From the NCBI RefSeq assembly GCF_018336915.1, contig NZ_CP064923.1, positions 4,620,001 through 4,652,000 of the forward strand: a stretch of DNA of 32,000 bases. Direction: 5' to 3'. Numbering within the stretch: the first letter of the stretch is position 1; each line of letters opens with the position of its first letter. This DNA comes from Acaryochloris marina S15. Its GTDB lineage: Bacteria; Cyanobacteriota; Cyanobacteriia; Thermosynechococcales; Thermosynechococcaceae. The notes beneath the pieces are model-generated. The model ran no database searches and was not told the DNA's origin. It worked only from the letters and a program-made list of their open reading frames with translations. This document shows, piece after piece, positions 1,612 through 21,232 of the stretch. The translations under genes and the position numbers were made by a program.

Positions 1612-1620
1612 TAAGATGTC

Positions 1621-2379: not shown

Positions 2380-2393
2380 TATCCCCCTCTCCA

Positions 2394-3902: not shown

Positions 3903-3936
3903 GGGTTCGGCCTGATTGATCGGTCGACAAACTCAC

Positions 3937-6228
3937 TTAAGCTTTTAGGTAAGCATAGTTCTTATGGGTGGGACTCACGCCATTTGCCACTAGACCAATC
4001 ACATTCAATTTCTTATGAGCAGAAATTGCTTGTGATAACTCTAACCGGGTGACTTGTTTCATTCGACCCACCATCACAACACCATCGCATCCTAAGCCGA
4101 TAGGAATGGTATCTACGACGCCCAACACTGGAGGACTATCAATCAAAATCAAATCATAGTTATTTTCAAAGCCTTTGAGAACATTTTGCATCCGTTCTAA
4201 ACTCAATAGCTTTACTGGATCTGCCGATAGAGGTCCAGCGGTCAACACATCAATACTCAGATCAGACGGAGGCAGCGTTCCTGGATCTAGCTCAGACTCA
4301 TCCCAACGCATATAAACCCATTGTGGGGTAGTCTGTAGCTCCGCCAAGGTGACATCTCCATTGAGGAGAGTCGATAATCCTTGATGGTTATTCAGGTTAA
4401 ACATGTAGTGCAAGCTTGGATTTCGCAGATCTGCATCAATCACTAAGACACGTTGATCTAACCGAGCAGCACTAATTGCTAGGCCTAAGGCCAAGGTAGA
4501 TTTACCCTCTCCAGTCCCAGCTGAAGTAATCATCAAAGTTTTATAGGGGTTTTTGGTTTGTAGCAGCTGGATGTTGGTATAGATTAAGTCCAGGGATTCT
4601 CGCAGGGGTTGCCATTGAAATAGTTCTGGCGTAGTAAAGGTGGGGCTTTGGGTTTCTGTTAAGGGCAGAATGAGAGAGTCTCGCAAGTCAGAGGTAGAGA
4701 GTTCAGGGATAGCGCCCAGTAAAGGCAAGGGGAACTGATTACCTAAATCATCTGAGTTATGAAACTTATCGTCCATTGCTTCGCGCACAAAGGCTGCGAT
4801 GCCACCCAGAAATAACCCCACGACTGCTCCCAACATCAAATTGCGTCGGGCGTTGGGACTAATTTGAACCCCCTGCTGGGGCGCTTCTACCACTTGCCAA
4901 TCAAAGCCATCTCGGGCAATCTCTAATCCCAGCTCTTGGCGGGCTTCTAGAAGCTTCTGCAACGTCCCCCGTCGAGTAGAGACTTCTGGTTGTAGGCGGT
5001 TGAACTGGGCCAATAACTCAGGATATTGCTTGAGTTCAGTCGTTAACTTTGCTTCGGTTTGCGCTAAGCTGCGATCGCGTGCTTGCAAACTCTGCAAGCT
5101 TTTCTGAAGTTCACTCAACTGCCGAACCAGGGATAAGTCATTGTCCCCAAATTGGCCTGCATTGAGTTGGTTCTCACTGGTGGGCAACTGACCCGCATCA
5201 TTCCCCAATACCCGACCCACTTCCTGCTCTAATAGAGCCAATTGATCTCGGCGCTGATTGAGTAAATTGAAAATGATGGGATGATCTTCCGTCAAAGTTT
5301 GGCGTTTTTGCGCTAACTCTAATTCAGTTTGCTGAATTTGATTCAACAGAGACTGATACCGAGGCGATTCACTTAACCGAGCCGATGTTCGAGCTTGATC
5401 AGGGGCTAACTGAATCTGCCGCTGCACACTGGTAAAACTGGCATAGGTTTCTCGGTATTGAGCATCTAAAGCCTGTCGTTCAGTTTTGATCCGGTCTAAA
5501 GCAGCGGATGCGGTTTGGGCTTGTGTAGCAGGGTCAATCACATTGGTGCCACTGCGAAAAGTCTTCAGGGCAGCCTCTGCTTCCAAAACGCTGCGGCGAA
5601 CTTCTGGCAATTGCTTATCAATAAACGCCAAACCCTTGGAGAGACGGAGCTTCTGCTGTTCTAGGTTATAGAGTTGATAGACAGATAAGACTGTTTCTAA
5701 AATCTGTTGGGTTTTTTCAGGCTGAGTACTGATGTAACTGGCGGCCAAGACCTTTGTTGCGACCTTTCCTTTACCCGTTCGATCTGGACCATATACAGGA
5801 CTAAAAGACAAAGATGATCGTAGATCCTCAATGGTGATATTTGGATAGTCTGTTTGTAGCCGTTCAACAGCCCTAGACAGAACTTCAGCCCCCGTCAACA
5901 CTTGCAGTTGTGTCGTGAGATCCACTTGAACATTCGGATCAGCAAACCGATTCTCTGCGGTCTTCGGCCCTAAACCATTCGGTTTGGACTGATAGTTGGA
6001 CTCCACCAAAAGCTGCATCGTACTTTGATACAGGGGTTGAGTTTTTAAAGTCAGGAAAATAGAGCCTGCCAAAGCGCCCACAAAGGCACCTAGAAACCAA
6101 AATTTCCGCCGGATTAAGATCGAAAGCAGATGCCCATAGCCCCAGTCTTTGTCAATGGTTTGGGCAATCAAAGCATCTTGTTGATGCGCAAGCTTATTAG
6201 GGGGTTTGTATAAACTGCTTTCAGTCAC
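3937..6228 (-). CDS. Polysaccharide co-polymerase / BY-type tyrosine autokinase (Wzc/GumC-like)
   Basis: 763 aa with an N-terminal chain-length-determinant region, two TM segments and a long coiled coil. The C-terminal P-loop ATPase has Walker A SAGTGEGKST, Walker A' VLVIDADLRNPS and Walker B DLILIDSPP. GTG start. Confidence 0.85.
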   Translation of the reverse strand: MTESSLYKPPNKLAHQQDALIAQTIDKDWGYGHLLSILIRRKFWFLGAFVGALAGSIFLTLKTQPLYQSTMQLLVESNYQSKPNGLGPKTAENRFADPNVQVDLTTQLQVLTGAEVLSRAVERLQTDYPNITIEDLRSSLSFSPVYGPDRTGKGKVATKVLAASYISTQPEKTQQILETVLSVYQLYNLEQQKLRLSKGLAFIDKQLPEVRRSVLEAEAALKTFRSGTNVIDPATQAQTASAALDRIKTERQALDAQYRETYASFTSVQRQIQLAPDQARTSARLSESPRYQSLLNQIQQTELELAQKRQTLTEDHPIIFNLLNQRRDQLALLEQEVGRVLGNDAGQLPTSENQLNAGQFGDNDLSLVRQLSELQKSLQSLQARDRSLAQTEAKLTTELKQYPELLAQFNRLQPEVSTRRGTLQKLLEARQELGLEIARDGFDWQVVEAPQQGVQISPNARRNLMLGAVVGLFLGGIAAFVREAMDDKFHNSDDLGNQFPLPLLGAIPELSTSDLRDSLILPLTETQSPTFTTPELFQWQPLRESLDLIYTNIQLLQTKNPYKTLMITSAGTGEGKSTLALGLAISAARLDQRVLVIDADLRNPSLHYMFNLNNHQGLSTLLNGDVTLAELQTTPQWVYMRWDESELDPGTLPPSDLSIDVLTAGPLSADPVKLLSLERMQNVLKGFENNYDLILIDSPPVLGVVDTIPIGLGCDGVVMVGRMKQVTRLELSQAISAHKKLNVIGLVANGVSPTHKNYAYLKA

Positions 6229-6238
6229 AATCTGTATT

Positions 6239-7363
6239 TCAACTTATAGAAGGAACAAAAGAATTTTGATTAATCGTTTGAGCGGGATAAATTTGGTTAA
6301 TAACTTGATGGATTTTTTGAAAGAAGACGGGTTCGGAAAAGTGTGACAGGGCATGGTTTCGAATGTATTGATAGTCCCATTCGATCTGTTGCGATCGCAC
6401 GAGTGCTGCCTGCAGAGATGAGGCTGTTTGTTTATTGAAAAACACACCCGTCTGGCCTGGAACTTGGGTATCGAGTACACCACCCGCACCAAAAGAAACC
6501 ACTGGCGTTCCGCTGGCATTTGCTTCAACGGGAACCAAACCATAATCTTCTAGGGCTGCCACGACCACTGCTTTAGCTTTGGCCATCAGATGACAGCGCT
6601 CTGCATCAGAGATATATCCTAGAAATTCGACGTTTGATTTAGCTCGACGTTCTAAATGCTCCCGTTCCGGGCCATCTCCCATAATCTTCAAAGGCCAACC
6701 CAACTGATTAAACGCATCAATAATAACGTCAACACGCTTATAGCCCAACAATCGGGCAGATACTAAGAAAAAATCTTCTTTTTGGTCCGAAAAAGAAAAT
6801 TTAGAATTATCAATTGGATAGTTGACTACAATCGCTTGCTTACTATAAGTCGATTGGATACGGCCGGCGACTTCAGTCGAATTAGCAATATATAGATCGG
6901 GCTCTTGGGCATAGGCGAGATCAGCCTTCCTCATGACCCGAAACATTTTCTCGATAAAAGGGTAGAGATGCTGATAGTCTGCATACTCTCTCAAATAGGT
7001 TTGGGTGTCCCACAGAAAACGAGTGATGTTATGGCAAAAGCAGATATGTTTTGCATCCGATCGGGTTCGCACCGCTTTAGCAAAGCTGGTGCTACTGCTA
7101 ATAATTAGGTCATATTTCTGTAAATCCAACGCTCTAAAAGCTGGATAATAGAAAGGAGCCAACAGCCTAAAATACTTGGTTGCCCCTGGTAATTTCTGTA
7201 AAAGAGTTGTATGAACAAGTCGATCGCCCAACTCTATCGTTTGTTGTGGATCGTATAGAGAAGTGAATATATCTGCACTGGGGAAGTGACGACACAACAG
7301 CTCGAAAACCCTCTCAGCGCCTCCGCGTTGGGTTAGATAGTCATGAACTAGGGCAATCTTCAT
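6239..7363 (-). CDS. Glycosyltransferase family 4 (GT-B)
   Basis: 374 aa. The N-terminus MKIALVHDYLTQRGGAERV and the E-x7-E region EDYGLVPVEANASGTPVV are typical of GT4 retaining transferases. Confidence 0.85.
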   Translation of the reverse strand: MKIALVHDYLTQRGGAERVFELLCRHFPSADIFTSLYDPQQTIELGDRLVHTTLLQKLPGATKYFRLLAPFYYPAFRALDLQKYDLIISSSTSFAKAVRTRSDAKHICFCHNITRFLWDTQTYLREYADYQHLYPFIEKMFRVMRKADLAYAQEPDLYIANSTEVAGRIQSTYSKQAIVVNYPIDNSKFSFSDQKEDFFLVSARLLGYKRVDVIIDAFNQLGWPLKIMGDGPEREHLERRAKSNVEFLGYISDAERCHLMAKAKAVVVAALEDYGLVPVEANASGTPVVSFGAGGVLDTQVPGQTGVFFNKQTASSLQAALVRSQQIEWDYQYIRNHALSHFSEPVFFQKIHQVINQIYPAQTINQNSFVPSIS

Positions 7364-7821: not shown

Positions 7822-9636
7822 TTATCGATAGTTCTGAGCTTGGGTTTCAAACATCGATGCATAGACCCCATTCAGGTTCATCAGCGTATTATGATTACCT
7901 TCTTCAATCATGTGACCTTGTGACATCACATAAATATAGTCCGCCATCTTAACTGTCGACAATCGGTGACTAATCAAAATGGCGGACTGATCTTGTATGA
8001 GCTCCCGAAACTGTTGGAAAACCTCATACTCAGCTTTGGGGTCCATTGCACTGGTTGGCTCATCCAGAACAATCACTTGGGAATCTCGAAGAAAGGCACG
8101 AGCCAAAGCGATTTTCTGCCACTGCCCAATACTGAGTTCTTCTCCCTGATCAAACATCTTGCCTAAGACAGTATCGTACCCTTGAGGTAACGACTGGATC
8201 ACTCTATCGGCCCCGGATAGTTGAGCCGCCGATCGGATTCGATGCTCATCGGCAGGTCTCTCAATATTCCCTAACTGGATATTCTCTCGGGCAGTGAAAT
8301 GGTATTTAGCATAATCTTGAAAGATGACGCTGATATGGCTTTTCAGCTCAAGCTTGCTAAAGTTTTTGAGATCAATCCCATCAATTGTGATATTCCCTTC
8401 AGTAGGATCGTAAAGCCGACAAAGTAGCTTAATTAATGTCGTTTTGCCAGAACCATTTTCACCCACTAAAGCAATGACTTGTCCTGGCTGAAGCTTGAGA
8501 GAAACATTGTGAATAGCTTGACGCTGGGTCGTTACATATTGAAAGCTCACATTATTGAAGGCAACTCCAGTGGCTAAACTCCCTGGAAAAGGCTGCGGGC
8601 ATTCTGGCTCCAAAACTTTTGATTCTATATCTAAAAACTCGTATAGATTCGCAAGGAACAAATTATCCTCATAAAGTCCAGATAGACTCCGTAACAAACC
8701 CTTCAGACTATTTTGGCCTTTTTGCAGTGCCTGATAGTAGAGAACTAAATCCCCTAATTTGAGCACTCCCAACAAAGTTTGTTGGACCATATAGACAAAG
8801 ATGGCAAATACAAACAGTCCTGCAATTACCTGGGCTCCAAAAAAGGCAAAGGATCGTTTGGAAACTATGCCTACTTTTTCTTTATAGATTATTTCCCGTA
8901 ACTGGGAATATCTGTGTTTGAAATGTTCTCCTAAGTTAAATAGACGAATTTCCTTGGCAAACAAATCGCTGGTTTGTAACCACCCCAAATACATCGCCTG
9001 CCGTTCCAGCTGAGTACGACGACGCTTCCAGTGGTACATCACCCCTGCAAACTTCATCCGCACCAACACAGTCGGAATAGCAGCAACAAACAAAATCCCC
9101 ACAATGCTCCAATGCAAGGCTAATAACAATCCCAACATTGCGATCAGTGAAATTGAACTTTGCCCGGCCAAGGCTAACCGATCCAGGATACGGGGAGGGC
9201 GATAGGGAGCCTCTTGTTGTGCCCGCTGCAAGGCATCATAATACTGGGCATTTTCGTAATACTCTAAGTCGGCTGAAATAGATTTAGAGTGGATAATGCC
9301 CTGCATATAATCCGTGACCCGCTGAGCATGAGCAATGGTAACCAAGTCCGATAGCGAGGCAAAGAAGGTCGTACTAATCGTCAAGCAAGCGGCAACAACC
9401 AATAAAGGAACGATATCGTTGATCGCTGATGCCCGGTTAGAGAGTGCTAAGCTAATCGTCACTTGGTCGACAATCAGCTTAGTCATATAAATGGAAAATA
9501 AGGGTAGGATGCCCTGAATGATGACCAAGCCAATGCGCGCCAAAGTCCAGTTAGGACCGCTTTGCCAAACCAATTTCAAAGCTGGTATGAAGTGCAAGGG
9601 ACGTTTGAATCTTGCTTTGATAAATCCAGTCAGCAT
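7822..9636 (-). CDS. ABC transporter, fused permease and ATPase; candidate lasso-peptide exporter (D protein)
   Basis: 604 aa with an N-terminal 6-TM domain. Walker A is GENGSGKTT, the signature is LSIGQWQKIALARA and Walker B is VIVLDEPTSAMD. It is co-directional with the two precursor genes and lies immediately downstream of them. Confidence 0.85.
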   Translation of the reverse strand: MLTGFIKARFKRPLHFIPALKLVWQSGPNWTLARIGLVIIQGILPLFSIYMTKLIVDQVTISLALSNRASAINDIVPLLVVAACLTISTTFFASLSDLVTIAHAQRVTDYMQGIIHSKSISADLEYYENAQYYDALQRAQQEAPYRPPRILDRLALAGQSSISLIAMLGLLLALHWSIVGILFVAAIPTVLVRMKFAGVMYHWKRRRTQLERQAMYLGWLQTSDLFAKEIRLFNLGEHFKHRYSQLREIIYKEKVGIVSKRSFAFFGAQVIAGLFVFAIFVYMVQQTLLGVLKLGDLVLYYQALQKGQNSLKGLLRSLSGLYEDNLFLANLYEFLDIESKVLEPECPQPFPGSLATGVAFNNVSFQYVTTQRQAIHNVSLKLQPGQVIALVGENGSGKTTLIKLLCRLYDPTEGNITIDGIDLKNFSKLELKSHISVIFQDYAKYHFTARENIQLGNIERPADEHRIRSAAQLSGADRVIQSLPQGYDTVLGKMFDQGEELSIGQWQKIALARAFLRDSQVIVLDEPTSAMDPKAEYEVFQQFRELIQDQSAILISHRLSTVKMADYIYVMSQGHMIEEGNHNTLMNLNGVYASMFETQAQNYR

Positions 9637-9960
9637 AAACGGCCATTTGACAATGCATAGTGCAGAATTATCCTAACGCTGTACGAACACACTCAGCGAG
9701 AGAGGTGAAAAACATGGCCAGCCCTAGTCAAAATCCTGGGTCATAGGATGGAGCTGATCTGCCAGATCGTTCACATTTCAATAATGAGGTCGAAGTCTTA
9801 GGGAGACTGCCTTACACCCCAGAGAAGCAAAGTCGTCATCCATATGGCTAAGCTGAAAAAGCCTGCATCCGAACAGCAAGGACTCATTCAGCAACACTGA
9901 AACCGTTGATCTTAAACAGGCCGTTATCGAGGAGATGCAATGTTGTGATCTGTTTTAGCT

Positions 9961-9996
9961 CAAACAAATAGAGCCAGCATTTTGAAGGCTGACTCT
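9961..9996 (-). terminator. Candidate intrinsic terminator or attenuator after the precursor genes
   Basis: The minus-strand RNA reads AGAGUCAGC-(9 nt loop)-GCUGGCUCU, a 9-bp stem with one G.U pair, followed by AUUUGUUUG. It begins about 40 nt after the stop of precursor A2. Confidence 0.4.
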
Positions 9997-10038
9997 GTTT
10001 GTATCAATATTCAGTTTATAGATAACTGAAAAGGATGA

Positions 10039-10179
10039 CTATGACGTTACATCATCAATATCACCGGCAGGAATCGTCCCAAAAGGCACATCTGTCGCAT
10101 TAAATGACGGTGAATTCTTAGTCATATCTTCTACGCTGCCATACACCTTCAACTGAGGTGCACCATAGGATCTTTTCAT
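10039..10179 (-). CDS. Lasso peptide precursor A2 (46 aa)
   Basis: Hand translation gives MKRSYGAPQLKVYGSVEDMTKNSPSFNATDVPFGTIPAGDIDDVTS*. An AAGGAG Shine-Dalgarno lies 12 nt upstream of the ATG. The leader fits the lasso RRE-recognition pattern Y-x2-P-x-L-x3-G-x5-T-x. Too short for the ORF track. Confidence 0.85.
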   Translation of the reverse strand: MKRSYGAPQLKVYGSVEDMTKNSPSFNATDVPFGTIPAGDIDDVTS

Positions 10180-10259
10180 GGTCTTAGCTTACTCCTTACT
10201 TAATTTGTCTTTAGCTGTTCTGGCTTATGCATATGGAAGCATTTGCCAATTAACAGCGT

Positions 10260-10277
10260 CTAATTGTTGTCAATTAG
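10260..10277 (-). promoter_or_regulatory. Conserved palindrome or hairpin in the A2 5' region
   Basis: The plus strand reads CTAATTG-TTGT-CAATTAG, a 7-bp perfect stem. It lies about 85 nt upstream of the A2 ATG. Confidence 0.4.
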
Positions 10278-10372
10278 GTGTTTTACCCCCCAGGTCAGCT
10301 GTGAAACAATTCAAGCTGGACCACGACGCAAACATTCTAGCAACAATCAAAAAATCGTGGCTGGGTAATAAA

Positions 10373-10513
10373 CTATGACGTTATATCATCAATATCCCCA
10401 GCAGGAATGGTTCCAAATGGCACATCGATAGCATTCACCGATGGCGCATTCTTTGTCATATCTTCTACGCTTCCGTAAGCCCTCAATTGAGGTGCATCAT
10501 AAAATTTTTTCAT
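10373..10513 (-). CDS. Lasso peptide precursor A1 (46 aa)
   Basis: Hand translation gives MKKFYDAPQLRAYGSVEDMTKNAPSVNAIDVPFGTIPAGDIDDITS*. It has an AAGGAG Shine-Dalgarno upstream and the same Y-x2-P-x-L-x3-G-x5-T-x leader. Its stop directly abuts the duplicated upstream region of A2. Confidence 0.85.
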   Translation of the reverse strand: MKKFYDAPQLRAYGSVEDMTKNAPSVNAIDVPFGTIPAGDIDDITS

Positions 10514-10596
10514 GGCCTTAGCTTGCTCCTTAAGTCATCTGCTTTTAGCAGCTGTTCTGGTTTACTTATATGAGTTGCCATACAAGTTAACAGCGT

Positions 10597-10614
10597 CTAA
10601 TTAAAGTTAATTAG
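10597..10614 (-). promoter_or_regulatory. Conserved palindrome or hairpin in the A1 5' region
   Basis: The plus strand reads CTAATTA-AAGT-TAATTAG, a 7-bp perfect stem. The innermost pair is A:T here and G:C in the A2 copy, a compensatory double change. Confidence 0.4.
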
Positions 10615-10803
10615 GTGTTTACCCCCCAGGTCAGCTGTGAAACAAGTTTCTAGCCGGACCATGATGCCGCTATTTTAGGCAGTATCCAGTGGAAAATCTT
10701 GCCGAGTGGACATCAATTCAGCATACAAATCCAGTTTAGACATTATAGCTTTTAAAATATATGGGGAGAATCTCAATCCTTAAATATTCATAAGATTTGA
10801 TTA

Positions 10804-12777
10804 CTATTGCGTGGATTCTGCAAAATTGGAGCTTAGATTAGCTTGTTGTAGCCAAAGAATCAAGTTAACGGCAATCCAAATCAGTAAAGTGTCGTTAGCT
10901 TCAGCATGTCCTGTGTGCCATCGATTGACTAGGTTAGTCAGCTCTTGCATATCAATAAAGTCTGCAATGGCATCAGGAGGATGACTGAGGACCTGGTGGA
11001 TCAAGTCCGTACCGTATTTCTCTAGGGTATGGTCAAACGCTGTGCCCAAATTTCCTTTCCCTGCGCGCCACTGAATTTGGGGAGGAAGAATACCTTCGAG
11101 TCCACGTCTGATAATCAACCGAGTCCAACCATTTTGCATCTTCTGCTCCTCTGGTAGAGAGACACAAAATTCTACTAACCGCTTATCCCAAAAGGGAAAT
11201 CGCAATTCAATTTGGGATGCGGCGGCTGTTCGATCCATCACTTCTAGGGTCGAAGAGACTAAGCCAGACGTAACATCAACGATATGTTCATGACGTTGAG
11301 ATGGTTGTGCGCCAAAGCGCTGACGACGCAACTGTTTATAGCGCTGTAGCACTGATGCCCGATCGATAAAGTCTGGGCTAAGGGGAATGGCCCAAGGCAT
11401 TGCTGGAGCTGCCTGTGATGCACTAGGGTCTTGCTGTCCACGAGATTGCCAAGTGTTGACTTTACGAATAATTTTGGTGATCTTTGTCTTCTTGAGGAGG
11501 GGGTTGATGCCAAATTTACGGACATAGGACCGATACAGTGGCCATAAGTCGTAACCGAAGCTTTGACAAAACCCGCTCATCTCGCGCCATAACTTGAGCC
11601 AATGTCCCGCTTTGGCAAGGGTGCGCAAATACCCTACTCCATGGGATACCGCCTGATCACCATCAAAGCCATCCAATAACACCCGGACGGATTGGCCCTG
11701 AGCGATTTGATATAAGGCATGGGTTAAGTGGGAGTTACAGGCAAATAAGGGTTCGTCTTGAAGGGCCAACATCTGCTGATAATCTGTCCAGGGTCCGAGT
11801 TGATCTCCCTGTACATACTGAGGCTCGATAGGCCGCTGATGAACCACTGCATTAATGAATTCCTGTTCATCAGATGCCGTTATTTCATTAAACACGGCAG
11901 AGAAGGTGGGGAATTTAGCGGTCTCTTGTGCCTCCTGTCTCAACTGGGCAGTCATACAGGTGATGGAGGAGGAGTCAATGCCACCACTTAACATCGTGCC
12001 CACGGGAAATGCACTTCTGAGGCGACAGCGCACTGCTTCGGTAAAAATAGCTTGAAACTGTTCAGCATAGGCTTGATCGGACTCAAGCTGTAGTTCAACG
12101 TCAGGATCGAGAGACCAGTAGGATGAGATGTCCAGATTGTTTTTGCTCACCGTCATCCGGTGAGCAGGAGGAAGTCGCAGGATCTGCTCATAGAAGGTCA
12201 TTTCTGAATCAAACAACATGAGGGTCAGATAGTCGGCGACTCTGGTTTCATTTAAGGCTTTAGGCACTTCTGGCAGGTGAAACAGCGCTTTCATTTCGCT
12301 TGCAAAGGCAAACACCTGTTCAGAGGCATAGTAAAAGAAAGGCTTGACCCCAAAATGATCGCGGGCACAAAACAAATGCTGTTGAGTGGCATCCCAGAGG
12401 GCAAAGGCAAAGTCACCCAGGAGAAATTCAGGACATTGTTCACCCCATTTTTCGTAGGCAGCAAGAATGAGAGCGCTATCGGTAATAACTTCGGATGTAG
12501 GCTGTTCCAGGCCCAACTGGGTCATCAGATCAGCACGATTATCAATCCGCGCGTCGGCAGTGAGGACTAAGGTTTGGGAGGCATTGCTGAGAGGAGGCGT
12601 TTCAAACCGGGATTCTGGGGTTGTCTGTAATAAACAATGGCCGAGGCCAACCTGATCTTGACTCCATATATTTGTCCCATCCGGTCCCCGATGGGACAGA
12701 GATTGGACCATTTGATGCAGATGATCAATCCCCCCAGGATGAGGGTGAGGATAAACAAAGCCAGTAATTGCGCTCAT
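10804..12777 (-). CDS. Lasso peptide cyclase (C protein), asparagine synthetase B-like
   Basis: 657 aa. The N-terminal Ntn-like domain starts MSAITGF, so it lacks the Cys2 glutaminase nucleophile, as is usual for lasso cyclases. The PP-loop ATP pyrophosphatase motif is MLSGGIDSSSIT. Confidence 0.9.
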   Translation of the reverse strand: MSAITGFVYPHPHPGGIDHLHQMVQSLSHRGPDGTNIWSQDQVGLGHCLLQTTPESRFETPPLSNASQTLVLTADARIDNRADLMTQLGLEQPTSEVITDSALILAAYEKWGEQCPEFLLGDFAFALWDATQQHLFCARDHFGVKPFFYYASEQVFAFASEMKALFHLPEVPKALNETRVADYLTLMLFDSEMTFYEQILRLPPAHRMTVSKNNLDISSYWSLDPDVELQLESDQAYAEQFQAIFTEAVRCRLRSAFPVGTMLSGGIDSSSITCMTAQLRQEAQETAKFPTFSAVFNEITASDEQEFINAVVHQRPIEPQYVQGDQLGPWTDYQQMLALQDEPLFACNSHLTHALYQIAQGQSVRVLLDGFDGDQAVSHGVGYLRTLAKAGHWLKLWREMSGFCQSFGYDLWPLYRSYVRKFGINPLLKKTKITKIIRKVNTWQSRGQQDPSASQAAPAMPWAIPLSPDFIDRASVLQRYKQLRRQRFGAQPSQRHEHIVDVTSGLVSSTLEVMDRTAAASQIELRFPFWDKRLVEFCVSLPEEQKMQNGWTRLIIRRGLEGILPPQIQWRAGKGNLGTAFDHTLEKYGTDLIHQVLSHPPDAIADFIDMQELTNLVNRWHTGHAEANDTLLIWIAVNLILWLQQANLSSNFAESTQ

Positions 12778-12797
12778 GATGACAGAAGGGTCGAAAT

Positions 12798-14015
12798 TTA
12801 GGAATGAGAAGTGGGTTCAATCTCTTTAATCATGAGAAATCCCTCTTGAATCAAGTTCTGAGTTAAGGACAATCTGCCAGCATCATTAATCAAACCACCA
12901 ATATCTTTTATGGCCAGACAGGAATGGTCGATCAGATCGGTCAGGGAAGCCGCTAGAAAGATAGGAAAGGTTAGGCTTTTTTGATAGAAGTTCAAAATAA
13001 TTTGGGTTGAACTTCTATCAACTGAAAATAGGATATTGGGCCTACGGGCAACGACAGAATCGAGATTGAGCTGTGGCAGATGGATCAGGTCTTGGAAGCG
13101 GCCTTGGTCTTCTGATTTGCGATCGCACAAAAATACCCCATTCTTCCGCTCCACCAATTCTTTGGTCTTCACCCTATTCATTAAGGACTGGCTCAGGGTT
13201 TGAAACGATTCATCAAAAGCCTGCTGTTGCTCAGAACTGGAAAAACCGTGGGGAATCGCTTTCCGAAAGGCCGGGTCAGCCTGGGCAATGGTGACCAACT
13301 CCTCCAAGAGTTCGTAAGCAAAGGTGGGATATAACCCTAGGGATGCGTGGACTGAAGTGGTTTCTTGACTGGCCGCTTGATGGACCACACCCCGAGGAAT
13401 ATAGAGCAAATCACCAGGCTGGAGCATTACCGTTAACTCTGGCTCAGCCAGTTCATGGCGGCCAATACTTTGATCTCTGATGTGAGAGGGTAGCTCAACG
13501 GGGGAATGGTAGAGTTTCCATTCTTTCTCCCCGGTGATTTGGAGAATAAACACATCATGTTCGTCGTAATGAGGTGCTAAACCCTGGGCTTGGGGGGGCG
13601 TGATGTAGATATTGGTTCGGAGCTTAAACTTCAGCTCGCATTCTAGGGCACTACAAAAGTGTCGCAGCTTGGGAATTTTCTTGTGGGCCCCGTTGATGGT
13701 CAAGGTTAAGCCCTGGTGCAACAAGCTATACAGCTTGTCATTGTCAATAAAATATTGTTGGGATTTAGAGTGGCGTTCGCACCAGTCTTCCAGACTTAGC
13801 TTATTGCCCTGATCCACTAGGCGGAAGTTATTGTAATCCGCCAACAAAGCTTTGTTTTGCAGCAGTAGATCGATGTCGCCTGGATCTAGGACCGACCCAT
13901 AAAAAAAGGCATCATTCCTGGGCAAATGAAGCGTTTTTGCTTCCCAATAGGTCTGGAAAAAATCTTCAATCGTGCAGGGAGCGATTAAACGGGCAAACTG
14001 AGACTCAACCTTCAT
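12798..14015 (-). CDS. JmjC/cupin-4 Fe(II)/2OG oxygenase, ribosomal-oxygenase (YcfD/RoxA, COG2850)-like
   Basis: The N-terminus FFQTYWEAKTLHLPRND resembles the YcfD start. The facial triad is H-Y-D in GLAPHYDEHDVFILQ plus the distal His in LLYIPRGVVHQ. The ATG at 14015 overlaps the kinase stop by 11 nt (ATGAAGGTTGA). The track start at 14036 is a TTG. Confidence 0.75.
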   Translation of the reverse strand: MKVESQFARLIAPCTIEDFFQTYWEAKTLHLPRNDAFFYGSVLDPGDIDLLLQNKALLADYNNFRLVDQGNKLSLEDWCERHSKSQQYFIDNDKLYSLLHQGLTLTINGAHKKIPKLRHFCSALECELKFKLRTNIYITPPQAQGLAPHYDEHDVFILQITGEKEWKLYHSPVELPSHIRDQSIGRHELAEPELTVMLQPGDLLYIPRGVVHQAASQETTSVHASLGLYPTFAYELLEELVTIAQADPAFRKAIPHGFSSSEQQQAFDESFQTLSQSLMNRVKTKELVERKNGVFLCDRKSEDQGRFQDLIHLPQLNLDSVVARRPNILFSVDRSSTQIILNFYQKSLTFPIFLAASLTDLIDHSCLAIKDIGGLINDAGRLSLTQNLIQEGFLMIKEIEPTSHS

Positions 14016-14910
14016 GGGCCAGGATGTGATTTTCAACTAGGGTAGCAATGTCCGGCAGTAAATCTAAGGAAGCTGGTCGTAGAAGACGCAAGAGAGGCAC
14101 CTGTTGAGCCAGTATCATCAGTTGCTTAAAATGGCTGGCCCCTCGCTCCTGCAATAAAGTTTGCTCAAAGCGGGTGACATAGGAGTTTTGCATCAAATGT
14201 TGAATAATCTCCTGGGGCGGCAACGGCTTAATGGCGACTTCGTCTCCTTGCCCCAGCACAAAAATATATCTAAGAGGCAGAATGTCAGCCATAAAGCCCG
14301 AAGAGAGCTGATGATTCCGTTTTTCTAAGCGGGCACCTAATCGCGGCAAATCTTCGGGTTGCTTGCCAATGCAAGCGACGGCATCTGGCCACAGCTTAAT
14401 TTGAGGAAAGGCAGGTTGCACCTGAATTTGATGACGTTGGATTTCCAGGGCCACCACATCATCCGCAATTAAGCTATGGCCTCGATCATGCAAGGTAGCT
14501 GCCATCGTGGATTTGCCCCACCGTTTTTGACCGATAAAGGCCACGGCTTCGCCTTCTAAGGCCACAGCGCTGGCATGGAGGACCAAAAATCCTCGTTGGT
14601 GCAATACGACCCCCATCACCGCGCCTAGAATAAACAGGCGAAGGCGATCCTCATCCAGATCGATCTCTAAATCAATCAGGACATCTTGCCCTTCCTGAAT
14701 CAAAAACGTCCCCACTCCCTGCCAATATAAATACATCCCCGCATCTGTATTTTGATAGCAATGCAGGGTGTTTTCGGTTTGCAAAGGACTATCGGTAATG
14801 GCACCAAAATGAATCCAAACATCCGCATCAGTTGCCAGGGTAGAGATCAGTTCTGGCAGTTGAATTTCAGACTGTAGGGTCAAGCCATAGGCTGAGTAAA
14901 AGTGGGACAT
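14005..14910 (-). CDS. HPr kinase-like (HprK-related) kinase; candidate lasso precursor Ser kinase
   Basis: 301 aa with P-loop GQKRWGKSTMAA followed by LIADDVV, as in the HprK C-terminal domain. It sits inside the lasso operon, and both precursors end in Ser. Confidence 0.75.
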   Translation of the reverse strand: MSHFYSAYGLTLQSEIQLPELISTLATDADVWIHFGAITDSPLQTENTLHCYQNTDAGMYLYWQGVGTFLIQEGQDVLIDLEIDLDEDRLRLFILGAVMGVVLHQRGFLVLHASAVALEGEAVAFIGQKRWGKSTMAATLHDRGHSLIADDVVALEIQRHQIQVQPAFPQIKLWPDAVACIGKQPEDLPRLGARLEKRNHQLSSGFMADILPLRYIFVLGQGDEVAIKPLPPQEIIQHLMQNSYVTRFEQTLLQERGASHFKQLMILAQQVPLLRLLRPASLDLLPDIATLVENHILAHEG

Positions 14911-15043
14911 GGCAATTGCGGTTATCCAGACTCAAAGAATAACGTTTTTAGGCGATTTTTGCCTTAAGCAATCAGGGTTAGATATTTGAGAAAGATAAAG
15001 TAGAGCCTGGAGAATCAATCCTGCAGATATAGACCGCCAATCC

Positions 15044-15973
15044 CTACCGTGGGTCCATAGGCAGGATTTTCTTGAGGTTGGACTTGAGTTTTTTCAGGAA
15101 CGGTTGAGCGGATTTAGGGGAGTTGGCAGTAAACAGCTCATAGATTAACTGTTCGAATAGCGGATTGGGCACCATGGGGTCTGGGTGAATCATGGCATCT
15201 AGGTCCAAATTAAAGGTCGGCAACTCATTCAGACCTTGGTTTCCTTGGGTATGACTGCCTTGAGTACCAATATTAGAAACCAGATTGACCTTGGGCACCA
15301 CGGTAAGACCATTCTGGGCAAGACAAGAATAAAACCACGGAATATCCCAAACTTGTTGGTTTTGATAAGCCCAGTCAAATAATTGGGTAACCCAATCTGC
15401 TAGGGCTGGCTGCGGAAAAAATTGGGCCTGTCGATACTGAGGCCAGCCCGTCATTTTGAGGTCGTAGCATTGCCAAGCCCTGCGCCAAGAGGCCCATCCC
15501 CAAGACACAAAAAATTTAGAAAACACATAGGTCTGGGGAATCGGTAAGGTATCTCCCAGAAAATTACTGCCGGAGATAGTCATCACTTGAGATAGATGAC
15601 GGTACTGGGCCAACATGGCTTGGCAAAAAGGGAAAAAACTGGGATGGGGAAGACAATCATCTTCTAAAATGATCGCTTCTTCCACCTGAGAGAACACCCA
15701 ATCCAACCCCTGGGCATTGCAACACCGCCCCCCAAGATTCGAGTCTGAAAAATGGGTGAGCACCTCGCACTCCCAATCCACTTGATCGACAATGGCTCTA
15801 GCTTGCTGGCATAATTTTTGGTCCTCTGGAACATCAGCTCTCGGGCCATCTGCAACGATTAACAAAGCTTGTGGTTTGGCCTGGGCAATCGCGGCAAACA
15901 CCTGACTGGAATATTGAGGGCGATTGAAAATATGAAACGCAACGGGAGTGGAAAGGGGCATCAGGAGTGCCAT
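15044..15973 (-). CDS. GT-A fold glycosyltransferase, GnT-I (GT13)-like
   Basis: 309 aa. It has an N-terminal Rossmann-like strand PVAFHIFNRP. The motif IILEDDCLPHPSFF closely resembles the GnT-I EDD motif (EDD-x4-P-x-FF). Confidence 0.6.
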   Translation of the reverse strand: MALLMPLSTPVAFHIFNRPQYSSQVFAAIAQAKPQALLIVADGPRADVPEDQKLCQQARAIVDQVDWECEVLTHFSDSNLGGRCCNAQGLDWVFSQVEEAIILEDDCLPHPSFFPFCQAMLAQYRHLSQVMTISGSNFLGDTLPIPQTYVFSKFFVSWGWASWRRAWQCYDLKMTGWPQYRQAQFFPQPALADWVTQLFDWAYQNQQVWDIPWFYSCLAQNGLTVVPKVNLVSNIGTQGSHTQGNQGLNELPTFNLDLDAMIHPDPMVPNPLFEQLIYELFTANSPKSAQPFLKKLKSNLKKILPMDPR

Positions 15974-15991
15974 GGAAGAAGAAGCGGAATT

Positions 15992-16600
15992 TCAGACAAA
16001 CCAGCTGACAATCGAGAAGCGCTCACCATAGGTGACCGGTTTAACTTCATGCCAGAGATCGGATCGAAACGCAATCAGTTGACCTTGTTCAGGCTCCAGA
16101 GGGAAGCCATAGTTTTGACCGCGAGCATCATCAAGTAATCCATAGAGGGCTAAGGCTCCGCCCCCAAAGGTCTGAGGACTAGGCTCAGCGGACATACTGT
16201 TGAGGAAAATAATTAAAGACACCAGTCGATTTTTTTCAAACTTAGAGCCCGGTAGGCTCGGATCGATGACATCTCGATGAAGGCCAAAAAAGTCGCCCAC
16301 TTGATAGCGATAGCAGGAGGGGGGTTCTAAGTCCTGGAGTTGGACCTGGAAATGGGTTTCTAATCGCGGCTTAATAGCAATTAAGCGCTCACGAATGCTC
16401 TGGGCCGTGGTTTGACTTATTTGCAACTGGCCCGTTTTTCGTCGACTATTGTCGGTCACAGCCTCACCATATCTTGTGAGGCGAGCGGGCTCACAGGGGC
16501 AGGTCTGTGCTTCCGTGAGGTAGGACTCACAAAATTGTGGATCTAAAAAGCCGGGGTCAACAAATACCCCCAAGCGTTCAAAAAAAGCAGCGCTAGGCAT
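15992..16600 (-). CDS. 2OG-Fe(II) oxygenase, prolyl-4-hydroxylase-like
   Basis: 202 aa. The HxD is in FGLHRDV, the distal His is in DLWHEVKPV, and the 2OG-binding Arg is in ERFSIVSW. Confidence 0.75.
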   Translation of the reverse strand: MPSAAFFERLGVFVDPGFLDPQFCESYLTEAQTCPCEPARLTRYGEAVTDNSRRKTGQLQISQTTAQSIRERLIAIKPRLETHFQVQLQDLEPPSCYRYQVGDFFGLHRDVIDPSLPGSKFEKNRLVSLIIFLNSMSAEPSPQTFGGGALALYGLLDDARGQNYGFPLEPEQGQLIAFRSDLWHEVKPVTYGERFSIVSWFV

Positions 16601-16670
16601 TGCTCCGAACCTTTTATTCAGCGATGGAAAAATATTTAATATTCTAGATCAAGTCCTCAGAAGATGAGGC

Positions 16671-17129
16671 TTAGATCTTGGAATCAAATGATGGCATTGG
16701 TGTAAAGCGGGATAAGTCATTCACAAAGCCCATGATCACTTGCCCTTGCAACTCAACCCAGGCATGGGCTTCTAGAGAATGGTCTTCTGCTTTAGCAACC
16801 CCAATTTTTAGCTCGGGTTCATAGCCTCGCCGACAAATTAACACTTGAGTGACGAGGGCTCGAGCTAAACATTTCACCTTTCCTGGCATAAAGCGGCTGC
16901 TGGTGTTCACTGCCCAGACCACTTTACCTACGGTCCTACGACTAATCTTAGTCAGGGTAGGCGATTGATAGTAAGCAGACGTTTGGTGAAAGTTGACCAG
17001 CCATTTTTGCAGGATTTTGAAGGGTAGCAACCACAACCCCAATCGAACCAAGCCCAAGAGAACGTAGGTTTTGATCAGGAGGGTGCGATCGCAACTTCGC
17101 AACCGCAAAAATTTAAGCACTGGCGACAT
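16671..17129 (-). CDS. Lasso peptide leader peptidase B2 (transglutaminase-like Cys protease)
   Basis: The catalytic Cys context is KCLARALVTQVL and the His context is LEAHAWVEL. The ATG at 17129 overlaps the end of B1 by 17 nt. The track start at 17141 is a TTG. Confidence 0.85.
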   Translation of the reverse strand: MSPVLKFLRLRSCDRTLLIKTYVLLGLVRLGLWLLPFKILQKWLVNFHQTSAYYQSPTLTKISRRTVGKVVWAVNTSSRFMPGKVKCLARALVTQVLICRRGYEPELKIGVAKAEDHSLEAHAWVELQGQVIMGFVNDLSRFTPMPSFDSKI

Positions 17130-17418
17130 CTTTGATCTCAATCAATTCCGATTCAGCCATCTCATTTAGCAACCTCATGACATCTTGTTCACACTGGTCC
17201 GACCCAACTTCGTATTGATCTAAAATTTGGTCGCAGATATCTTTAACCGATCGAGGTTGCTGAAGTAAATTCCAAACACTTGCACCCACTTCATTCAAAC
17301 CGAAGTACATTCCTGTCTTCAGGTTGAGGATAACTGATTCCCCGGCTAAGTCAGATGAGACTTGCTCTGGGGTCGCAACAACCGTTGTATTCGTTGAAAT
17401 AGTGGTAGTCAAACTCAT
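17113..17418 (-). CDS. Lasso peptide B1 protein (PqqD-like RiPP recognition element)
   Basis: 101 aa. The PqqD/RRE pattern is ESVILNLKTGMYFGLNEVGASVWNLL. It lies directly upstream of B2 and is translationally coupled to it. Confidence 0.85.
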   Translation of the reverse strand: MSLTTTISTNTTVVATPEQVSSDLAGESVILNLKTGMYFGLNEVGASVWNLLQQPRSVKDICDQILDQYEVGSDQCEQDVMRLLNEMAESELIEIKDVASA

Positions 17419-17607: not shown

Positions 17608-18810
17608 TTACCTTTTTGAATTGCAGAATTTTTCAACGCAACGCACAAAGATTTCCACTCCCATGGCTAAAGCAGTCTCATCAAAATCGAATTGGGGATG
17701 GTGGTGGGGATAGGCTAATCCTCGCTCGTCATTGGCTGAACCCAAAAAGAAGTAGCAACCTGGAACTTCTTGCAAAAAGAAGGACATGTCTTCCCCTCCC
17801 ATGGTTTGACAGTTGGGAACCACACCTGTTGGTGTTTCAATCACTTCAGTACTGATGGAGCGTACTAAATCTGCGATCGCAGCATCATTTATCACAGGTG
17901 GATACAGTCGCCAATACTTTAAGTCGTAGGTGGCTCCCCAACTTTGACAAATCCCCGTCAGGATATCCTGCATACGCGGCTCAATCAGATGGGCCAATTC
18001 TGGGTCAAAGTAGCGAACCGTGCCGCTCATAAAGCTGGAGTCGGCAATCACATTAGAAGCTGTGCCCGCATGGAGTTGTCCGATGGTCACCACAGCTGAA
18101 TCGAGGGGATTGACATGGCGAGCCACAATGGCTTGGAGGGCGTTGACGATTTGAGCGCTGATCACCACTGCATCCGTGGTTTGGTGAGGCATGGCGCCAT
18201 GTCCCCCCTTGCCCTGAATCTTGCATTCAAATAGATCCACGGCAGCCATCAGCGGCCCTGATTTGACGCCAACGGTGCCGAGGGGGAGATTGTTCCATAA
18301 GTGCAGGCCAATAATGGCATCAACTTGCGGGTTTTGCAGAACACCCGCCTCAATCATGGGCTTGGCCCCACCCGGAGATTCTTCAGCAGGCTGGAAAATG
18401 ATCTTGACCGTACCGGCAAAGTCTTGGCGATGTTGAGATAAATAGCGGGCTGTTCCCAGAGCAATGGCCGTATGTCCATCATGGCCGCAGGCATGCATGA
18501 CCCCATCGTGGCGTGACCGATAGGAAACCGTATTCTCTTCCTGAATGGGCAAGGCATCTATGTCTGCCCGAATCGCTAACACTGGCCCCGGTTGTGCCCC
18601 AGAGATCGTGGCCATGATACCCGTTTCAGCAATGCCTGTTTGATGGTCAATGCCCCATTCTGTTAAGCGCTGAGCTACAAATTCAGCAGTGAGATGCTCT
18701 TTGAATCCAAGTTCTGGATATTGATGCAGATGCCGTCGCCAAGAGACTAAATCCAGTTGTTGGATATCTGAGCGAATGGAGGTATCAGAATGAGGAGGAG
18801 AAGAAACCAT
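17608..18810 (-). CDS. M20D-family amidohydrolase (N-acyl-L-amino acid amidohydrolase / hippurate hydrolase-like)
   Basis: 400 aa with motifs LHQYPELGFKE, MHACGHDGH, FQPAEE and GGEDMSFF, characteristic of M20 peptidases. Confidence 0.85.
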   Translation of the reverse strand: MVSSPPHSDTSIRSDIQQLDLVSWRRHLHQYPELGFKEHLTAEFVAQRLTEWGIDHQTGIAETGIMATISGAQPGPVLAIRADIDALPIQEENTVSYRSRHDGVMHACGHDGHTAIALGTARYLSQHRQDFAGTVKIIFQPAEESPGGAKPMIEAGVLQNPQVDAIIGLHLWNNLPLGTVGVKSGPLMAAVDLFECKIQGKGGHGAMPHQTTDAVVISAQIVNALQAIVARHVNPLDSAVVTIGQLHAGTASNVIADSSFMSGTVRYFDPELAHLIEPRMQDILTGICQSWGATYDLKYWRLYPPVINDAAIADLVRSISTEVIETPTGVVPNCQTMGGEDMSFFLQEVPGCYFFLGSANDERGLAYPHHHPQFDFDETALAMGVEIFVRCVEKFCNSKR

Positions 18811-21158: not shown

Positions 21159-21232
21159 GGGCTTGTAGCTCAGTGGACTAGAGCACGTGGCTTCGGACCA
21201 CGGTGTCGGGGGTTCGAATCCCTCCTGGCCCG
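21159..21232 (+). tRNA. tRNA, read as tRNA-Arg (anticodon UCG)
   Basis: The 74-nt cloverleaf has acceptor GGGCTTG/CTGGCCC (one U-U mismatch) and D arm GCTC-AGTGGACTA-GAGC with A20. The anticodon arm is CGTGG-CTTCGGA-CCACG, the variable loop is GTGTC and the T arm is GGGGG-TTCGAAT-CCCTC. The discriminator is G and no CCA is encoded. Confidence 0.75.

Follow-up and report, generated by a model that had tools for sequence, protein, structure and literature searches.

We analyzed a 32,000-nucleotide (nt) stretch of the Acaryochloris marina S15 genome (contig NZ_CP064923.1, positions 4,620,001 to 4,652,000), here called the window, in which coordinates count from the first letter. Our analysis supports the conclusion that the window of this cyanobacterium carries a complete lasso peptide gene cluster (A, B1, B2, C, and D), with genes for four tailoring enzymes lying between B2 and C. 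Our reading, to which we give a probability of about 0.75, is that this is a functional cluster of a kinase-bearing lasso family, that it has been elaborated in Acaryochloris with three further tailoring enzymes, and that it works through the pathway proposed below. Judged from its sequence, the cluster is genuine and conserved, and probably active.

Ten genes of a lasso peptide cluster

Ten open reading frames (ORFs), all in the same direction on the minus strand, occupy positions 7822 to 17418, exactly where an earlier note on this DNA, made from the letters alone, had placed them. Their order, shared with A. marina MBIC11017, is B1 B2 P4H GT K JmjC C A A D, where P4H is a prolyl 4-hydroxylase-like protein, GT a glycosyltransferase, and K an HPr kinase (HprK)-like protein. 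The features, in the direction of transcription, are as follows (RiPP, ribosomally synthesized and posttranslationally modified peptide; 2OG, 2-oxoglutarate; aa, amino acids).

17113..17418, minus strand: B1, PqqD-type RiPP recognition element (RRE), 101 aa; PF05402, 76.2 bits; NF033536 (lasso_PqqD_Bac), 83.9 against a cut-off of 80
16671..17129 (to 17141 from a TTG start), minus strand: B2, transglutaminase-like Cys leader peptidase, 152 aa from ATG; NF033537, 119.7 against 33; PF13471 (Transglut_core3), 106 bits
15992..16600, minus strand: P4H/PKHD-type Fe(II)/2OG oxygenase, 202 aa; PF13640 (2OG-FeII_Oxy_3), 57.7 bits against a cut-off of 27
15044..15973, minus strand: GT-A glycosyltransferase with a GnT-I/POMGnT1-like fold, 309 aa; assigned from an AlphaFold2 (AF2) model and Foldseek
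14005..14910, minus strand: HprK-like putative peptide kinase, 301 aa; Hpr_kinase_C, 29.6 bits, under the cut-off of 33.3
12798..14015 (to 14036 from a TTG start), minus strand: JmjC/ribosomal-oxygenase (ROX)-type Fe(II)/2OG hydroxylase, 405 aa from ATG (412 from TTG); PF08007 (JmjC_2), 107.9 against 22
10804..12777, minus strand: C, Asn-synthetase-like lasso macrolactam cyclase, 657 aa; NF033535 (lass_lactam_cya), 892 against 525; PF00733 (Asn_synthase), 175.8 bits
10373..10513, minus strand: precursor A1, 46 aa, leader MKKFYDAPQLRAYGSVEDMTK, core NAPSVNAIDVPFGTIPAGDIDDITS; NF033528 (lasso_cyano), 32.0 against a cut-off of 33, over residues 1-21
10039..10179, minus strand: precursor A2, 46 aa, leader MKRSYGAPQLKVYGSVEDMTK, core NSPSFNATDVPFGTIPAGDIDDVTS; NF033528 (lasso_cyano), 31.3 against a cut-off of 33, over residues 1-21
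7822..9636, minus strand: D, ABC exporter with fused permease and ATPase, 604 aa; PF00005 (ABC_tran), 117.7 bits; MsbA-like matches over the full length

C, B1, and B2 all scored above the cut-offs of the NCBIfam lasso models, and the catalytic motifs, read from the sequence, were complete in every enzyme of the cluster. B2 has the catalytic residues C91/H126/D142 in CLARAL, HAWV, and D motifs; the cyclase has an SGGIDS ATP-binding motif at residues 264 to 269 and begins MSAITG, without Cys2; and the kinase has a P-loop (GQKRWGKS, residues 127 to 134) and a DD pair (residues 150 and 151). The kinase also matched TIGR04352 at 1.6e-8, far under that model's cut-off, and the HPr kinase structure 3tqf at 9e-5. 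The earlier claims of a complete core machinery with intact motifs, and of four extra enzymes between B2 and C, were thus confirmed.

The degree of novelty had been overstated. Public annotation calls B1 a "lasso peptide biosynthesis PqqD family chaperone," B2 and C also bear lasso names, and UniProt B0CEG5, the MBIC11017 orthologue of A2, is entered as "Lasso peptide." The kinase and the GT are annotated as hypothetical, and both oxygenases have generic names only. Since the core genes already carry lasso names and the cluster is present in the MBIC11017 type genome of 2008, we rate it as less novel than the earlier note did.

Conservation and natural variants in Acaryochloris

The window proteins correspond to QUY41697 to QUY41706 of A. 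marina, some of which Acaryochloris sp. "Moss Beach" shares without any difference. In MBIC11017 (NC_009925, locus tags around AM1_1915-1920) all ten genes recur in unchanged order, with 84 to 96% amino acid identity. Pairwise ratios of nonsynonymous to synonymous substitution (dN/dS) were 0.03 to 0.15 for all ten genes (GT, 0.12; P4H, 0.06), so all ten evolve under purifying selection and none is decaying. This constraint, together with the synteny, argues that the arrangement is not a chance one. The fastest-evolving gene is GT, with 84% identity to its MBIC11017 counterpart and a dN of 0.082.

A search of genome contigs with a single protein returned only MBIC11017 and one distant Chitinophagaceae locus. 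We therefore surveyed metagenomes, from which 79 loci were fetched with a cyclase profile; the loci compared are cited below by L numbers. Close relatives differed in single genes. L088, whose cyclase is 69% identical to that of the window, is without GT, and L089 and L090 (about 70%; one of them is Acaryochloris sp. IP29b_bin.137) are without both GT and P4H. L003, L004, and L009 (68%) keep P4H GT K JmjC C A D and an intact leader motif, but B1 and B2 were not found within 10 kb of the cluster (L003 9364-17645). P4H is present in L088, L003, and L001 and absent in L089 and L090, and GT occurs only where P4H is present (three of three GT-bearing lineages). Within the Acaryochloris clade the cluster is thus modular, with P4H, GT, and even B1/B2 variably present. 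These single-gene gains and losses amount to natural "knock-outs" for enzyme assignment.

In L003 a TldD/TldE protease pair lies 3 to 6 kb upstream of the cluster, and the same pair lies directly 3′ of the Chlorogloeopsis cluster (L091 14533-17369).

Precursors and the predicted core

We set the register of the precursors by the leader pattern YxxPxLx3Gx5Tx, which gave 108 motif matches in L001 to L096. In this register Asp stood at core position 8 or 9 in all 84 matches that had an acidic residue at positions 7 to 9. The other 24 matches, without an acidic residue there, included clearly spurious ORFs and a few plausible precursors. Leader positions are numbered backward from the cleavage site (-17/-14/-12/-2), and both A1 and A2 have Y-17, P-14, L-12, G-8, and T-2, giving a 21-residue leader and a 25-residue core with Asp9. 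From the Asp8/9 pattern we predict an Asn1-Asp9 ring for the window peptides. The [Y/W]xxPx[L/V/I...] leader motif is a known RRE recognition motif (PMC13381572).

Both window cores end in D-[IV]-T-S and contain neither His nor Arg. Ser is the commonest C-terminal residue of the family precursors (44 of the 108 raw motif matches, about 24 of which are spurious) and closes most of the genuine ones, and core residue 1 in the family is Q, G, A, N, I, V, K, or another residue. The predicted product is a 25-residue peptide with an Asn1-Asp9 ring, a phosphorylated Ser25, and hydroxyl and sugar groups at the candidate sites discussed below. Untailored lassos would have calculated monoisotopic, neutral masses of 2480.207 Da (A1) and 2518.150 Da (A2), and fully tailored A1 one of 2754.216 Da with a hexose or 2795.243 Da with a HexNAc.

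Two further features of the family precursors stood out. Among about 85 of them, Gln, Asn, Ile, Val, or Lys often takes core position 1 in place of Gly, Ala, Ser, or Cys. A D-V-P-x-G-T sequence after the ring Asp is common to many, which is unusual conservation for a RiPP core.

A kinase-JmjC module linked to an Asp near the C terminus

The JmjC protein belongs to a small subfamily of its own (194 matches, largely cyanobacterial). The best PDB matches of its family profile were NO66 (1e-47) and MINA53, and its HxD...H triad (H156-x-D158...H219 in the window) was invariant in 21 homologues. Wherever the surroundings of a homologue were examined, down to 34% identity, its gene adjoins one for an HprK-like kinase. 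These contexts were the Acaryochloris clade, Chlorogloeopsis ULAP01, Scytonematopsis, Moorena producens, Calothrix NIES-4071, Xenococcus PCC 7305, and L096. Outside Acaryochloris the pairing thus occurs in at least six lineages, five of them in named cyanobacterial genera. Wherever the contig was long enough the pair lay inside a lasso cluster; in Xenococcus PCC 7305 a contig end shows the pair alone.

The presence of the JmjC gene coincides with a signature in the precursor. Five of 6 JmjC-positive lineages, against 0 of 15 JmjC-negative ones, have Asp at position -4 from the C terminus, i.e., three residues before the terminal residue (Fisher P = 3e-4, with lineages that are not phylogenetically independent). 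Nearly identical cores show the same contrast: ...GITDVTS with JmjC against ...INTITS without it, and ...IGDVAS with JmjC against ...VTVAS without it. On the strength of the signature and of these paired contrasts, we propose core Asp22 of the window peptides, which precedes the C-terminal Ser by three residues, as the site that the JmjC enzyme hydroxylates. Together, the kinase-JmjC module and the Asp near the C terminus yield a specific rule that can be tested and that would apply to many cyanobacteria.

More distant JmjC homologues (about 28 to 30% identity) lie on plasmids outside lasso clusters in Pseudanabaena, Streptomyces clavuligerus, and Dolichospermum, so the lasso link holds for the closer subfamily only. 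On the Pseudanabaena plasmid (L098 7962-9182) a JmjC_2 protein is encoded near a LanM/Nif11 lanthipeptide locus, and on the S. clavuligerus plasmid (L099 7796-9191) one adjoins a 48-aa ORF; each is about 29 to 30% identical to the window protein. These two contexts hint that the wider subfamily may modify other ribosomal peptides. We also considered whether the C-terminal ~110 residues of the window JmjC protein, which did not align, form an RRE/PqqD-like domain, an idea prompted by PMC12710340. Comparison with the B1 alignment in hhalign gave a probability of 0.3%, so the sequence lends the idea no support.

The P4H-like oxygenase and the glycosyltransferase

The P4H-like protein has the residues H108-x-D110...H184 and R194, which are invariant in its family alignment. 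A profile of 25 homologues, compared with PDB sequences, matched the PKHD hydroxylase 3dkq (7e-9), the Chlamydomonas P4H 2jig (4e-8), and 4iw3/4j25 (1e-7), all of them remote matches. The last pair is deposited as an uncharacterized protein, which we take to be a Pseudomonas prolyl hydroxylase. The family is large, comprising about 1,200 clusters of ~200-aa proteins; a plasmid search gave no P4H match. A single-sequence structure model of the window protein was poor (predicted local distance difference test score [pLDDT], 36.8). As to its target, Pro3 is absent in the P4H-positive L088. Phe12 and a PAGD-versus-PNPD difference covary with P4H, in too few lineages to interpret.

The GT had no Pfam or NCBIfam match, and a 25-sequence profile found nothing among PDB sequences at an E value of ≤1. 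Its AF2 model (pLDDT, 81) was more informative. The best Foldseek matches were POMGnT1, GnT-I, and GnT-II, with E values from 2e-8 to 1e-6, led by POMGnT1 (5ggi, 2e-8) and GnT-I (1fo8, 8e-8) at a template modeling (TM) score of about 0.5. An EDD motif (E104-D105-D106) was invariant across 25 homologues, and PF03071 was found in 1 of 120 GT homologues among the matches listed. The model thus supports the label "GnT-I-like," used for this protein from the start, as a description of the predicted fold only.

The addition of P4H and GT together is confined to the Acaryochloris clade. The earlier note had asked whether the enzyme neighborhood recurs in other genomes; the kinase-JmjC pair does, in at least six other lineages, and the P4H-GT pair does not.

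Proposed pathway and alternatives

From the genes and the comparisons above we infer a pathway, with the order of its steps and its acceptor residues. Two 46-aa precursors would be made, probably from their own promoters, and B1 would bind the YxxPxL leader (Y-17, P-14, L-12, G-8, and T-2). The HprK-like kinase would phosphorylate core Ser25, by analogy with paeninodin and pseudomycoidin. The JmjC/ROX-type oxygenase, apparently translationally coupled to the kinase, would hydroxylate Asp22, probably at C-beta, and the P4H/PKHD-type oxygenase would add a second hydroxyl, on Pro or another residue. The GnT-I-like GT-A enzyme would then add a sugar, for which the phosphate, a new hydroxyl, and Asn6 are candidate acceptors. 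B2 would cut after Lys-1, the cyclase would link the alpha-amine of Asn1 to the side chain of Asp9 to give a 9-residue ring with a 16-residue tail, and the ABC transporter would export the product.

Several points weigh against this reading. No product of the cluster has been observed, and the chemistry is predicted from genes. The kinase falls short of the Pfam gathering score for Hpr_kinase_C (29.6 bits against 33.3), and A1 and A2 lie slightly under the NF033528 cut-off (32.0 and 31.3 against 33). The Asp(-4)/JmjC correlation draws on some 21 lineages that are not independent in descent, and the sixth JmjC-positive lineage has its Asp at -5. No precursor residue convincingly tracks P4H, and Pro11 and Pro16 are kept where P4H is absent. 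Core residue 6 is Asn with GT and Ser without it, but in just two lineages against two. The nearest GT homologues outside the clade (~50% identity) are in deltaproteobacterial polysaccharide loci. Finally, we know of no characterized lasso peptide with Asn as core residue 1.

The last observation on GT raises the question of whether the peptide is its substrate at all. GT, and possibly P4H too, could be a polysaccharide gene captured from, or serving, the exopolysaccharide (EPS) locus next to the cluster. The deltaproteobacterial clusters that hold its ~50% homologues also contain a flippase, methyltransferases, and GT4/GT2 enzymes, and the same kinds of gene lie directly downstream in the window (GT4, Wzz/BY-kinase, a flippase, and two methyltransferases). 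Both GT and P4H are dispensable in the sister lineages L088 to L090, and no gene of the cluster evolves faster than GT (84% identity, dN 0.082). Against this, GT begins 18 nt past the P4H stop codon and precedes the kinase, a slot kept in the 68% identical L003; selection on the gene is purifying (dN/dS 0.12), and it is found only with P4H. A P4H homologue (46%) occurs in another lasso cluster, L041, and L096 has 2OG-FeII_Oxy_3 genes. A kinase and a recognizable GT had also been noted together before in one cyanobacterial lasso cluster (PMC6993621). On balance we think it unlikely that GT serves polysaccharide synthesis. A real, if doubtful, possibility is that GT takes the place of a PsmN-type nucleotidyltransferase and glycosylates the phosphate on the C-terminal Ser, not a hydroxylated residue or Asn6. 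The kinase-JmjC relatives L091, L092, and L094 carry PsmN-like NTP_transf_5 genes and our scan of the window found none, and exactly this role was proposed for the GT of a Stanieria cluster by Zyubko et al. (PMC6993621). Neither the association of GT with P4H in all three GT-bearing lineages nor that with core Asn6 would be expected, however, if phosphate were the acceptor. To our knowledge, moreover, enzymes of the GnT-I type act on sugar acceptors, not on phosphate.

It is also conceivable, though very improbable, that the cluster is a relic, silent or in decay, or that it makes a linear phosphorylated peptide and not a threaded lasso. No product of it has been seen, relatives lacking B1 and B2 exist (L003/L009), and Bacillota are described as making linear polyphosphorylated peptides with this same type of kinase (PMC13381572). 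But all ten ORFs are intact, with their catalytic motifs and with dN/dS values of 0.03 to 0.15, and the cyclase, B1, and B2 of the window score as lasso proteins.

Within the reading of a functional, kinase-bearing lasso cluster, the most specific version combines an Asn1-closed ring, a C-terminal phospho-Ser, a beta-hydroxy-Asp made by the JmjC enzyme of the fixed kinase pair, and a GnT-I-like sugar on a residue hydroxylated by P4H. We offer it tentatively, as a conjecture rather unlikely to hold in all its parts. If it does, lasso biosynthesis would have its first JmjC hydroxylase, defining a module spread across cyanobacteria, and the sugar on a P4H-made hydroxyl would parallel, in a prokaryotic RiPP, the glycosylation of hydroxyproline in eukaryotic Skp1 and in plant proteins. 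One peptide would then unite four chemistries that have not been found together in the lasso class, and in part not found there at all. A peptide-directed JmjC hydroxylase and a GnT-I-like peptide GT would be useful tools for RiPP engineering. The cluster extends a known biosynthetic logic and overturns no concept. Of most use among what is new here are the kinase-JmjC module and the Asp(-4) signature that goes with it, the Acaryochloris gain/loss series, and the recurrent polysaccharide-gene neighborhood described below.

Operon structure and regulatory elements

From B1 to C the enzyme genes lie close together (gaps of -17, 70, 18, 133, -11, and 20 nt), whereas the gaps flanking the precursors are 290, 193, and 402 nt. 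The 17-nt B1/B2 overlap and the 11-nt kinase/JmjC overlap, both reported earlier, hold with ATG starts. The former recurs in the gene calls of L088, L089, and L090 and the latter in those of L088, L089, L090, and L003. Three noncoding features accompany the precursors.

10514..10665, minus strand: conserved block upstream of A1, with a promoter-like box and a putatively structured 5′ leader; aligns with the A2 block and with the blocks of L001, L003, and L088-L090
10180..10330, minus strand: conserved block upstream of A2, a duplicate of the A1 block; from the same alignment
9964..10002, minus strand: stem-loop just 3′ of the A2 stop codon, a possible attenuator or mRNA stabilizer before the exporter gene; no U-tract

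The upstream blocks (~150 nt) are conserved across the clade and contain a TGCTAnAAT-like extended -10 box, short hairpins, and an AAGGAG Shine-Dalgarno sequence. The 89-nt stretch that includes the stem-loop (9950-10038) folded at -22.9 kcal/mol (z, -4.2), and none of 200 shuffled sequences was as stable. These duplicated blocks and the stem-loop after A2 make separate transcription of the precursors likely, from their own promoters (predicted at about 10650 and 10320) rather than by read-through from the enzyme genes. The ten genes, taken earlier for one operon, are thus probably not a simple single one. A scan for sigma-70 and terminator consensus sequences found sites no more frequent than in shuffled sequence, and an Rfam scan of the window found tRNA only. 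Since a consensus fold of the precursor 5′ block showed covariation in only 3 of 18 pairs, we claim no structured RNA element.

A widespread kinase-bearing lasso family

The family of the cluster (NCBIfam lass_lactam_cya/lasso_cyano) is a kinase-bearing lasso family that is widespread and mainly cyanobacterial. Cyclase homologues with 40 to 50% identity are common in cyanobacteria (Pleurocapsa, Richelia, Chlorogloeopsis, Komarekiella, Chondrocystis, Calothrix, and Timaviella), and a few come from Chloroflexi and Binatia. In the 79-locus survey, kinase homologues (32 to 57% identity) accompanied the cyclase in nearly all family loci, and exporter homologues formed the last gene of most clusters. 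The usual order, seen in about 70 loci, is B1-B2-C-(A)-K-D. Because this order places A after C, the position of the precursors between the enzymes and the exporter, which had looked atypical, is the family norm. What is unusual here is that the kinase lies upstream of the cyclase, together with three other enzymes.

Other members are tailored differently. One cluster (L096 1275-12978), whose JmjC protein is 34% identical, has the kinase-JmjC pair together with two 2OG-FeII_Oxy_3 genes, a PhyH oxygenase, and an HTTM protein. It also holds a sulfotransferase and an ATP-sulfurylase/APS kinase and is more heavily tailored than the window cluster. The combination of a kinase with several Fe/2OG oxygenases is therefore not unique to Acaryochloris. 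In L092 (12275-13099, Scytonematopsis) and L094 (10244-11068, Calothrix) a gene for a PCMT-type (isoaspartyl) methyltransferase adjoins the kinase gene; enzymes of this type form aspartimide in other lasso peptides. The window cluster is the most decorated variant that we encountered with named cultured relatives, A. marina MBIC11017, CCMEE 5410, and "Moss Beach."

Genomic surroundings

Downstream of the cluster, at positions 838 to 7363 on the minus strand, is the EPS locus already mentioned. Among the long cyanobacterial lasso loci, about half encode a Wzc-like or GT4 homologue within 10 kb, and other relatives have sugar-nucleotide, pectate-lyase, or PsmN-like genes alongside the lasso cluster; the loci concerned are L061, L066, L068, L069, L074, L082, L085, L011, L016, L024, and L091-L094. 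Such neighbors may be connected in function, through sugar supply, the sheath, or EPS biology, or may just share ancestry.

Upstream, a gene for an M20-family amidohydrolase (17608-18810, minus strand) lies 189 nt from B1. It is syntenic in L001, L088, and L089 but absent from this slot in L090 and L003, so it probably stands outside the cluster. A few kilobases farther upstream are a tRNA gene (21159-21232, plus strand) and an IS605-type OrfB/TnpB transposase-like gene (23460-24689, plus strand).

Comparison with known systems

A search of the open-access literature found no Acaryochloris lasso cluster, no JmjC or cupin enzyme in lasso biosynthesis, and no such set of tailoring enzymes. The earlier suggestion that the combination is undescribed therefore stands as far as open-access accounts go, but in genomes the kinase-JmjC pair recurs and L096 joins a kinase to several oxygenases. 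The same search found no isolated cyanobacterial lasso peptide, in agreement with the earlier note, yet by family models and our survey there is a large, mostly cyanobacterial, kinase-bearing family.

Close in architecture is the paeninodin (pade) cluster of Paenibacillus dendritiformis, whose peptide is phosphorylated on its C-terminal Ser. There too B1 and B2 are separate and the precursors end in Ser; both clusters encode an ABC exporter, an Asn-synthetase-like cyclase, and an HprK-like kinase, the window kinase being a putative one. The pade cluster is without an oxygenase or a glycosyltransferase. The window differs further in its cyanobacterial host, in having the kinase gene upstream of the cyclase gene and overlapping a JmjC gene, and in Asn as predicted core residue 1. 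Pseudomycoidin (psm, Bacillus pseudomycoides) shares a kinase and a sugar-adding function, its peptide being phosphorylated and then glycosylated. HprK-type kinases phosphorylate the C-terminal Ser, and it is that phosphate that is then glycosylated (PMC6993621; PMC11912497). Glycosylation of pseudomycoidin needs PsmN, which is NTP_transf_5-like; none of the window ORFs scanned had this domain, and the window has a GnT-I-like GT-A enzyme and two Fe/2OG oxygenases instead. The Stanieria lasso cluster of Zyubko et al. has a kinase and a recognizable GT without B genes (PMC6993621), which parallels the B1/B2-less L003 variant. In the davasins of Streptomyces davaonensis, a dedicated GT of the lasso cluster, IgtG, glycosylates Ser iteratively. 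The window GT, set beside it, has a GnT-I/POMGnT1-like fold and an acceptor that is only predicted.

Precedents also exist for the oxygenases. CanE, of the canucin cluster of Streptomyces canus, is presented, in what is cited of it in PMC13381572, as an Fe/2OG hydroxylase of a lasso peptide. Its host is an actinobacterium, and the canucin cluster has neither a kinase nor a GT. The target of CanE is reportedly the beta-carbon of a C-terminal Asp, close to the proposed Asp22. In biphenomycin-type RiPPs the cupin-like hydroxylase PbsQ hydroxylates a peptide side chain, and a role has been proposed for its JmjC-domain relative BpmG (PMC12257519). The window enzyme resembles them as a JmjC/cupin Fe/2OG hydroxylase with a predicted ribosomal peptide substrate, but they belong to another RiPP class (MNIO/radical-SAM macrocycles), with an ornithine substrate and no kinase or lasso link. 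The closest solved relatives of the window JmjC protein, NO66, MINA53, and YcfD/RoxA, share its HxD...H triad and hydroxylate His or Arg of ribosomal proteins. The window cores, in contrast, are free of His and Arg, and the JmjC gene is tied to that of a lasso kinase, a genomic context that argues for a peptide, and not a ribosomal protein, as the probable substrate.

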